64,000 nucleotides of DNA from Escherichia coli (GTDB taxonomy: Bacteria > Pseudomonadota > Gammaproteobacteria > Enterobacterales > Enterobacteriaceae). Positions 13,372 to 14,063 of this stretch are shown here, in pieces (the stretch's first letter is position 1; each line of letters begins with the position of its first letter). Under the pieces are notes generated by a model that was not told where the DNA came from, ran no database searches, and saw only the letters and a list, made by a program, of their open reading frames with translations. A program made the translations under genes and the position numbers. The stretch lies in assembly GCF_003334785.1 (NCBI RefSeq), contig NZ_QOWV01000001.1; one strand, given 5' to 3'.

Positions 13372-13968
13372 TTAATTCGAGACTATTGTACTTCTTATAC
13401 AAGCAACCACTTCAATATCAGAAAATGCACATTCAAAGCTATTCTCTGCTGTTGTAATTTTAATCATTCCTTTAGGAAGCCTTGTGATTTTTCGAATGGA
13501 ATAGGTTCCGTCGATATTGATTAACCAGTTTCCATCAAGTACTTCAGAAAATTTTTGATCACAAATGTATGTGACGAGTCCATCCTGAACAACAATTGGT
13601 GATGAAAGGTTTGCAGGAAGAAATGATGAATCGAAGACATATGAACCGTCTTCAATCATTTTGCCTGCGGCAAGGCGAAACTTAACAAGCTCTTCTGTAG
13701 CTGCTGTCAGCGAGCTTTGCTTAAGGCCTTGTCCGGTAGTTAACCATTTGAGGGAGGTTCCTGTTTCAAGAGCACATTGGATTATCCAGTCAGCAGGAAA
13801 TGTATCCCGCAAATACCTGTTCGCTAGTGTGCTTTTTGATACTTCCAAGTGATCAGCTAAAGCCTGTCGTGTCGTAAAGCCATAGGCTTCGACTAATCGC
13901 TCAATCGCAGCCTTACCACCTTTATTGGGATTTATTTTGATCTCACTTGGGTACTTTGATGTTGACAT
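13372..13968 (-). CDS. Phage 186 CI-like immunity repressor (HTH DNA-binding)
   Basis: 198-aa ORF (186 CI is about 192 aa); N-terminal HTH-like segment AIERLVEAYGFTTRQALADHLEVSKSTLANR; divergent from the Apl/Cox-like gene; AGGA Shine-Dalgarno upstream. Confidence 0.7.
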   Translation of the reverse strand: MSTSKYPSEIKINPNKGGKAAIERLVEAYGFTTRQALADHLEVSKSTLANRYLRDTFPADWIIQCALETGTSLKWLTTGQGLKQSSLTAATEELVKFRLAAGKMIEDGSYVFDSSFLPANLSSPIVVQDGLVTYICDQKFSEVLDGNWLINIDGTYSIRKITRLPKGMIKITTAENSFECAFSDIEVVACIRSTIVSN

Positions 13969-13997
13969 ATCTCTTTTGCGATCCTAGTATCAGTTTT

Positions 13998-14013
13998 GTA
14001 CCCAATTGGGTAC
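13998..14013. promoter_or_regulatory. Perfect 16-bp palindrome in the divergent repressor/cox promoter region (putative operator)
   Basis: gtacccaattgggtac; a related half-site cttgggtactt at 13946-13956 overlaps the repressor 5' end. Confidence 0.5.
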
Positions 14014-14063
14014 TTGTCACGATTACTACAGGCTCACCACAAGCCAATAGGAGATGTTGCATC

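Follow-up and report, generated by a model that had tools for sequence, protein, structure and literature searches.

The perfect 16-bp palindrome lying between the cI and apl/cox-like genes of an Escherichia coli prophage is most probably the best-matched of two, probably three, 16-bp dyad operators for a 186-type CI repressor, which together would span the early lytic promoter pR between about -59 and +16. CI binding is predicted from the geometry of the sites, their conservation among relatives and their co-inheritance with the repressor's DNA-binding domain; on the same grounds, the first-pass annotation of this region as carrying the operators of a lysis-lysogeny switch is very probably correct for a CI-type repressor. 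The features of the switch are listed in Table 1.

Table 1. Features of the immunity switch and its neighbouring genes, in coordinates of the 64-kb window
Feature	Position	Strand	Details
Site 2, predicted CI dimer site	13998-14013	.	GTACCCAATTGGGTAC; about +1 to +16 of pR
Site 1, second predicted CI site	13939-13954	.	GATCTCACTTGGGTAC; about -59 to -44 of pR; cI codons 5-10; includes the half-site of the first-pass annotation
Candidate middle site, weak, inferred	13968-13983	.	TATCTCTTTTGCGATC; in the pR spacer, about -30 to -15
pR, early lytic promoter	13962-13990	+	-35 TTGACA 13962-13967, 17-bp spacer, -10 TAGTAT 13985-13990; predicted start ~13997-13998
Candidate pL, lysogenic promoter	14054-14082	-	-35 TTGAAA 14082-14077, 17-bp spacer, -10 CAACAT 14059-14054; predicted start ~14047
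apl-linked intergenic part (pL leader, apl RBS, probable Apl/Cox sites)	14014-14063	.	module boundary ~14014-14018
cI, 186-type immunity repressor, 198 aa	13372-13968	-	PF07022 + PF16452
apl/cox-like gene, 73 aa, first in lytic operon	14064-14285	+	phrog_575
cII, 169 aa	14318-14827	+	70% identity to 186 CII, full length
PD-Lambda-1-type defence gene	11675-13351	-	PADLOC PD-Lambda-1; 20 bp downstream of cI, same strand

The prophage and its genes

The window, which is the whole 64-kb stretch of E. coli DNA that was analysed, carries a P2/186-like prophage integrated downstream of rcdA. Its CI protein combines a PF07022 helix-turn-helix (HTH) domain (E = 1e-31) with a PF16452 C-terminal oligomerisation domain (E = 6e-27), matches the crystal structure of 186 CI (2FJR, E = 7e-27) and is 32% identical to 186 CI; NCBIfam held no family for CI or CII. 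The apl/cox-like product belongs to phrog_575, 'Cox-like excisionase and repressor' (E = 1e-31), and has only weak similarity to 186 Apl. The gene downstream of cI encodes a PADLOC PD-Lambda-1 protein (E = 2e-120) with DUF4041 and T5orf172/MUG113 domains, and the layout suggests that it is probably co-transcribed in one lysogenic operon, cI - PD-Lambda-1 - int.

Phage vB_EcoM-813R9 and strain MS8345 share the immunity region with the window at 99.9% identity, and the latter carries an apparently complete prophage at the same integration site. The window prophage is colinear with that of MS8345 up to position 18270, where it jumps into the tape-measure gene, so that the N-terminal part of the replication endonuclease is joined to a tail protein. 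The deletion at this point has removed half of the replication gene, the tum/DinI-like module (in MS8345, a hypothetical gene and a DinI-like gene follow the replication gene) and most structural genes. The comparison with MS8345 thus bears out the earlier description of the prophage as defective. The accompanying suggestion that its immunity switch is intact holds for cI, apl, cII and the intergenic sites, but not for the deleted tum/DinI-like module, which we assume, from the role of Tum in 186, to be the SOS-induction module. Searchable literature yielded no publication on phage vB_EcoM-813R9 or on this immunity class, including its repressor binding.

Operator sites and promoter layout

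The palindrome GTACCCAATTGGGTAC (site 2) is the only perfect palindrome of at least 16 bp in the window. The positions originally reported for it, for the sequence cttgggtactt (13946-13956) and for the starts of cI and the apl/cox-like gene were all reproduced, although its placement as centred between the two starts is only approximate: the midpoint between the start codons is about 10 bp to the right of its centre, 14005.5. The last 10 bases of cttgggtactt, TTGGGTACTT (13947-13956), recur exactly at 14006-14015, and the octamer TTGGGTAC has three exact copies in the 64 kb, all of them at the switch (13947 on the plus strand, 13998 on the minus strand and 14006 on the plus strand). A repeat finder placed these matches within a 22-nt direct repeat, TTTTGATCTCACTTGGGTACTT (13935-13956) and TTTTGTACCCAATTGGGTACTT (13994-14015), whose copies are 82% identical and 59 bp apart. 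Because cttgggtactt is part of this longer repeat, the element first described as a half-site overlapping the initial repressor codons, while it does lie inside cI, is better described as part of a second, less symmetric full 16-bp site (site 1, GATCTCACTTGGGTAC) that is identical to the palindrome at 12 of 16 positions (empirical P ~6e-5). When the whole 64 kb was scanned with the degenerate consensus, allowing up to two mismatches, only sites 1 and 2 were matched.

Both sites are arranged around pR, the only sigma-70-like promoter that a consensus scan detected between 13300 and 14900 (10 of 12 positions matched) and one that is conserved among relatives. The gap between site and pR hexamer is exactly 7 nt in each case, with site 1 before the -35 and site 2 after the -10. 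Moreover, the -35 of pR overlaps the cI ATG (13966-13968), which leaves no room in the gap for a leftward, divergent cI promoter. The lysogenic promoter was located by positional homology: in an alignment of the two switches anchored at the apl RBS and ATG, the 186 pL hexamers (TTGCGA/CATGAT) coincide exactly with TTGAAA/CAACAT of the minus strand, a candidate that scores below the threshold of the sigma-70 consensus scan. From this we infer that pL is located where apl begins and directs transcription leftwards, toward pR, so that the two promoters would stand face-to-face with predicted starts about 50 bp apart, as in 186. The divergent promoters of the first-pass annotation are thereby replaced by one strong promoter and a candidate pL that would face it. 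In the annotated 186 record, pR and pL are likewise face-to-face, the CI sites lie over pR and the Apl sites lie between the promoters. Convergent lytic and lysogenic promoters 40-60 bp apart are general among P2-like phages (PMC7498355, PMC3448106), and phages of the 186/P2-like group have their repressor operators over the lytic promoter (PMC7498355).

A third, weaker CI site is a candidate in the pR spacer. The sequence there, TATCTCTTTTGCGATC, is identical to site 1 at 10 of 16 positions and to the 186 central pR operator at 10 of 16 (P ~0.002 each). Its register was fixed in advance by a sister class of switches (L071 and L074, with a CI N-terminal domain ~72% identical to that of the window), in which three clear sites, GTACCCATCTGTGAAC, CTTCCCATATGTGGAC and GTACCCAGATGTGAAC, occur in identical geometry at offsets 0/29/59, the middle one occupying spacer positions 1-16. 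By position, the middle site is homologous to the 186 central operator, and that operator, too, fills the pR spacer. Agreement of the middle site with the GTnCCCA consensus is poor, at 6 of 12 specified positions, and its conservation may stem from constraints on the cI ribosome-binding region and the promoter spacer. With the middle site included, the site centres are 13946.5, 13975.5 and 14005.5, which is 29 and 30 bp apart; if it is not real, the spacing is 59 bp. The pR operators of 186 are two helical turns apart and span 56 bp (PMC3675496), a spacing that does not occur at the window switch.

The comparison with 186 operators that had been proposed as a check found resemblance at all three sites: the 186 operator 16-mer TCTCTCAATTGGGAGA matches site 2, site 1 and the spacer site at 9, 10 and 10 of 16 positions (P = 0.009, 0.002 and 0.002, respectively). 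In particular, the 186 central pR operator, ATCTCTCAATTGGGAGAT, has the core CnCAATTGGG in common with site 2. Distal operators resembling FL and FR, which in 186-type switches are expected ~300 bp away on each side, were sought within 2.8 kb of the switch, and there were no matches to the window's own consensus with up to three mismatches; the 186 B-type consensus gave 30 matches where 28.9 were expected, which is the chance level. The sequence GTTCCATTTTGGGATAC (14286-14302), at the position of 186 FR, travels with the apl-cII module whatever the cI type and coincides with the expected pE -10, and it was not counted as a CI site. The palindrome upstream of rcdA, TTGTGTAC-N4-GTACACAA (9859-9878), a host RcdA site, has a different GTAC spacing and is therefore unrelated.

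Conservation and co-inheritance with the repressor

Through the CI protein, and not through the palindrome, 80 related loci were gathered, and the switch architecture proved common to 60 of them, representing 34-38 distinct sequences. The expectation that closely related immunity regions keep the palindrome holds for an imperfect dyad, GTnCCCAwTTGGGnAC, and not for the perfect symmetry, which is one of 12 alleles of this slot and a single allele among the 34 distinct relatives; the commonest allele is GTTCCCATTTGGGGAC. Only three columns of site 2 vary frequently (14000, 14005 and 14011): one at the centre and two that mirror each other across the dyad. At positions 1, 2 and 4-7 and at the positions that mirror them, there is either no variation or a change in no more than three distinct sequences. 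This pattern of variation is the signature that a symmetric dimer site would leave, and the dyad positions are kept in relatives down to ~87% switch identity.

Site 1 is constrained within a coding region. Across cI codons 2-17 there are three synonymous variants in total, compared with a mean of 5.8 per codon at degenerate codons outside site 1, and synonymous variation is concentrated from codon 18 onwards; the central base of the site (13946) varies despite changing the amino acid (Ser, Asn or Thr). The near-invariance at synonymous positions, together with the variable, amino-acid-changing central base, indicates that the constraint acts on the DNA and not on the protein. The whole stretch from cI codon 2 through the start of apl is low in diversity, however, so that conservation alone discriminates poorly and is weak evidence. 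The switch is common: it occurs in ~198 of 5,426 complete E. coli genomes, with the exact 134-bp window version in ~100 of the 198; many E. coli prophages, one of them apparently complete, carry this 134-bp version without a single difference.

The same variation bears on a reading in which the functional unit is the 10-bp direct repeat, with two copies 59-60 bp apart bound head-to-tail as by P2 C, and in which the symmetry is incidental. The copies are exact, the 22-nt repeat that contains them is also direct, the left half of site 2 contains two of its three variable positions, site 1 has one good half only, and the class of switches represented by Klebsiella phage 4LV2017 appears to use direct ATGTGA repeats. 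The mirror positions in the left half of site 2, however, read G, T, C, C, C and A in almost every one of the 34 distinct relatives, and the two variable positions away from the centre mirror each other. Further, the repressor is of the 186 CI family (PF07022 + PF16452) and not of the P2 C family, and in the 186 record both the central pR operator and the two distal sites annotated as FL and FR are inverted repeats. A direct-repeat unit is therefore improbable, and the sites are better described as dyads for a CI dimer.

The protein that binds the dyads is suggested by the elements with which they are inherited. In all loci with this switch, CI residues 1-80 are 80-100% identical, whereas identity in the C-terminal domain can be as low as 29% or as high as 100%; with the N-terminal part kept while the C-terminal part is swapped, the DNA-binding domain and the sites appear to move together as a cassette. 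Conversely, the Apl of the Klebsiella phages 4LV2017 and phi8.4 is 100% identical to that of the window, but their cI is different and the palindrome sites are absent: their sequence is identical to the window from CACGATTA (window position 14019) rightwards, and at their pR three ATGTGA(A/T) repeats replace the palindrome-type sites. About 150 E. coli genomes show the same division, matching only from window position ~14016-14019 rightwards, with a different cI and different repeats to the left.

These loci weigh directly on the possibility that the palindrome is an Apl/Cox site, or a site shared by CI and Apl in the manner of the lambda CI/Cro operators. The palindrome does lie between the predicted pR and pL starts, where the seven Apl sites of 186 are found (PMC7498355), and GTAC/xxxAC-like hexamers recur at 13995-14040. 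Known Apl/Cox sites consist of 6-bp direct repeats at intervals of 10-11 bp and are also present at att (PMC7498355), whereas the xxxAC hexamers of the window switch recur at intervals of 7-13 bp, the palindrome is a dyad and not a direct-repeat array, and the int-proximal att arm contains none of the palindrome half-sites. The co-inheritance pattern, in which the palindrome is missing beside the 100% identical Apl of phi8.4 and from ~150 E. coli genomes that share only the apl side (from ~14016-14018 rightwards), together with the att arm, largely excludes Apl/Cox as the cognate protein and places a module boundary immediately right of the palindrome. On this sequence evidence the Apl/Cox reading is largely refuted and very unlikely to be correct, and with it the earlier proposal of Apl/Cox as a co-binder of the palindrome. 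The only k-mers common to the switch and the int-proximal att arm are CACCAC (14035) and CCTAAC (14070), with GGTGGT and GTTAGG each present twice in the arm; they are suggestive of Apl/Cox sites but too weak to call.

Assignment of the dyads to CI does not follow from its HTH alone. The tandem-HTH CI of the 4LV2017 class has a second HTH almost identical to that of the window CI, yet there is no such palindrome at its pR, so HTH similarity by itself does not predict the sites. Within the tandem-HTH class, a relic of site 1 (12 of 16 positions) is present in L075 and L078 only and not in L004, L005, L082 or L088. The upstream regions of two divergent loci (L048 and L072) are organised differently.

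The palindrome might instead act as RNA, either as a 5′ stem-loop of the pR transcript or, through its complement, in the pL leader upstream of cI, with effects on stability or translation. With a pR start at G13998, the window allele would form a 6-bp stem with a 4-nt loop (-9.4 kcal/mol), and the commonest allele would reach -8.7 kcal/mol through a G.U pair. The frequent alleles GTCCCC...GGGTAC and GTTCCC...GGGTAC, however, reach only -4.7 kcal/mol, equal to shuffled sequences (z ~0), and the 3/14 position is unpairable in 15 of the 34 distinct sequences. Site 1 carries the half-site without hairpin potential, and a hairpin is a by-product of any DNA dyad; an RNA element is thus a highly improbable explanation. 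Lastly, a chance palindrome without function is scarcely credible, since, although simulated 64-kb sequences contain a mean of 1.4 perfect 16-bp palindromes (at least one in 75% of simulations), only ~0.002 are expected inside the 96-bp cI-apl gap, a second copy, 59 bp away, stands at a mirror-image distance from the pR hexamers, relatives conserve the dyad positions and the element resembles the 186 operator. Perfection alone would arise about once per 64 kb, so the argument for CI operators rests on location, repetition and conservation.

Proposed regulation and comparison with known switches

By analogy with 186, CI dimers would bind each dyad through their HTH N-terminal domains, and the oligomerising C-terminal domain would hold the dimers together, presumably cooperatively, and shut off pR. 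An active pR would fire head-on into the weak pL about 50 bp away; its silencing would relieve this transcriptional interference, and the relieved pL would sustain transcription of cI, the PD-Lambda-1 defence gene and int. The palindrome lies inside the pL transcription unit, and CI bound there at high concentrations could also dampen pL.

More tentatively, the window CI class and its L071/L074 sister may possess three CI sites about three helical turns apart, versus two in 186, with pL also driving PD-Lambda-1; we regard this combination as possible but doubtful. If adjacent dimers of a 186-like CI oligomer do occupy sites with 29-30-bp spacing, the family would tolerate or use different operator phasing. 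Such a three-turn spacing would also bear on a discrepancy in 186, where ~180 bp appear to be wrapped per wheel, as expected for three-turn spacing (PMC3675496). Similarly, if the switch drives PD-Lambda-1, a defective prophage would have a reason to keep it intact. The retention of a working repressor module in a prophage no longer able to replicate or to form particles suggests superinfection immunity and probably PD-Lambda-1 expression. The analysis provides an operator map, with three sites (the middle one a candidate), pR, a putative pL and the module boundary, for an immunity type common in E. coli and Klebsiella. It also illustrates how 186-type switches may diversify, with the DNA-binding domain and its sites as one cassette and the oligomerisation domain and the Apl/CII module exchanged. 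Overall, this is a familiar type of phage switch in an instance that had not been mapped before; a specialist would expect it, and it leaves current understanding unchanged.

The closest known system is 186. The two phages have the same repressor architecture (PF07022 HTH + PF16452) and the same gene order (int ... cI, then apl cII fil), and the window is predicted to have pR and pL face-to-face as in 186, with its candidate pL hexamers at homologous positions. In both, several dyad sites lie over pR, one of them in the promoter spacer (in the window, the candidate middle site), and the ATCTC arm of the 186 central operator is common to window site 1 and the middle site. The operators differ in their outer half-site bases, TCTC in 186 and GTnCC in the window, so heteroimmunity is expected. 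In 186 the operator centres are about two turns apart over a 56-bp span, versus 29-30 bp over a 75-bp span in the window, and the pR and pL starts are 62 bp apart, versus a predicted ~50 bp. Unlike in 186, the cI gene of the window contains the left site and shares bases of its start codon with the pR -35. FL and FR are present in 186, whereas FL/FR-type distal sites and B-type sites were not found in the window; 186 Apl is of a different subgroup from the window Apl/Cox protein, and in the window the PD-Lambda-1 gene is inserted between cI and int.

The switches of P2, WPhi and P2 Hy dis also have convergent promoters, with repressor sites that flank parts of the early promoter (PMC1904263, PMC1904268), and the window resembles them in its predicted convergent layout and its exact 10-bp direct repeat. 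P2 C repressors, however, belong to another family, are about half the size and are not alignable with CI (PMC3448106), and they bind non-palindromic direct repeats (PMC2995052), whereas the window repressor is of the 186 type and the conserved feature of its sites is a dyad.

A further likeness is to the OR region of lambda, in that both have multiple dyad operators and an oligomerising, autoregulating repressor, whose cooperativity and autoregulation in the window are predicted. In lambda OR, the promoters PR and PRM are back-to-back and the operators are shared by CI and Cro. The window switch differs in both respects: its promoters would face each other, and its Apl/Cox module is inherited separately from the operator sites.

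Candidate regulatory sequences around the immunity switch

Across 21 distinct cI alleles, the first 17 codons of the repressor gene (13918-13968) carry 27 amino-acid-changing variants and only 3 synonymous ones. This scarcity of synonymous change points to a regulatory stretch of about 50 bp that would reach into the cI coding region, past the predicted CI operator there (site 1). The sequence TTGGGATT is also present at 13926-13933, 21 bp to the left of the half-site in site 1, and might be a further weak candidate half-site.

On the other side of the switch, the element GTTCCATTTTGGGATAC occupies the position of FR, a distal CI operator of phage 186, and it is similar to GTTCCCATTTGGGGAC, the commonest form of the second predicted operator (site 2) among relatives. 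It travels with the apl-cII module irrespective of the cI type, and the expected -10 hexamer of pE (CAAAAT, - strand) coincides with it. A role in a promoter is more likely for it than one as a CI site. A palindrome at the beginning of rcdA, a host gene for a TetR-family protein, has GTAC in common with the prophage sites, though it was rejected as unrelated to them; it is probably the operator of the RcdA regulator itself.

Positions of features in the window and of the heteroimmune-class CI
Feature	Position	Strand	Remarks
20-bp palindrome TTGTGTAC-N4-GTACACAA	9859-9878		Start of host rcdA
14-bp direct repeat AACAAAAAACCCAT	10452-10465 and 22039-22052
Paired 186-type Int arm motifs (CGCCACTT / CGCCAT)	10563-10584 and 21966-21985		Just inside both prophage ends
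PD-Lambda-1-type defence gene	11675-13351	-	558 aa; between int and cI
GTTCCATTTTGGGATAC	14286-14302		Directly after apl stop
Fused ORF	16969-20073		1034 aa; junction 18270/18271
Ogr/Delta-like zinc-finger ORF	21745-21960		Right end of prophage
CI of heteroimmune class	L004:535-1476 (Klebsiella phage 4LV2017); also L005, L075-L088		~313 aa

Ends and losses of the prophage remnant

The 14-bp direct repeat marks the probable ends of the prophage, and the remnant is therefore about 11.6 kb long. The int-proximal att arm contains two copies of AACAATAAGTTAGGTT, 19 bp apart (10484-10520), followed by two copies of GGTGGT, 10 bp apart (10521-10537), and the switch carries CACCAC (14035) and CCTAAC (14070) on the opposite strand. 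These hexamers are possible Apl/Cox recognition sequences, on evidence too weak for an assignment.

Further inside, a deletion has created the fused ORF, in which the N-terminal ~430 residues of a P2-type replication endonuclease (gpA) run into the C-terminal portion of a tape-measure protein of the tail. Compared with the apparently complete prophage at the same site in E. coli MS8345, the remnant has lost the genes for the portal, terminase, capsid and lysis, most of the tail genes, and also the hypothetical and DinI-like genes that come after the replication gene in MS8345.

The repressor and probable lysogenic operon compared with related phages

In the heteroimmune class represented by Klebsiella phage 4LV2017, CI has two PF07022 HTH domains in tandem and, after them, a single PF16452 C-terminal domain. 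The second HTH is nearly identical to that of the window's CI, and the linker between domains is homologous to the N-terminus of the window's CI. Judged from this layout, the locus looks like a window-type cI onto which an extra DNA-binding domain was fused, along with a new operator set. Two loci of this class (L075 and L078) retain a site 1 relic (12/16), ~335 bp from their early lytic promoter, pR.

Downstream of cI in the window, and separated from it by 20 bp on the same (-) strand, lies a gene whose product contains DUF4041 and T5orf172/MUG113 domains and gives a strong PADLOC match (E 2e-120) to PD-Lambda-1, a protein of anti-phage defence. The gene is probably transcribed from pL, the candidate lysogenic promoter, or from pE. 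In phage 186, cI directly adjoins int, whereas in the window this gene stands between them; the PD-Lambda-1-type gene is therefore cargo inserted in the probable lysogenic operon.
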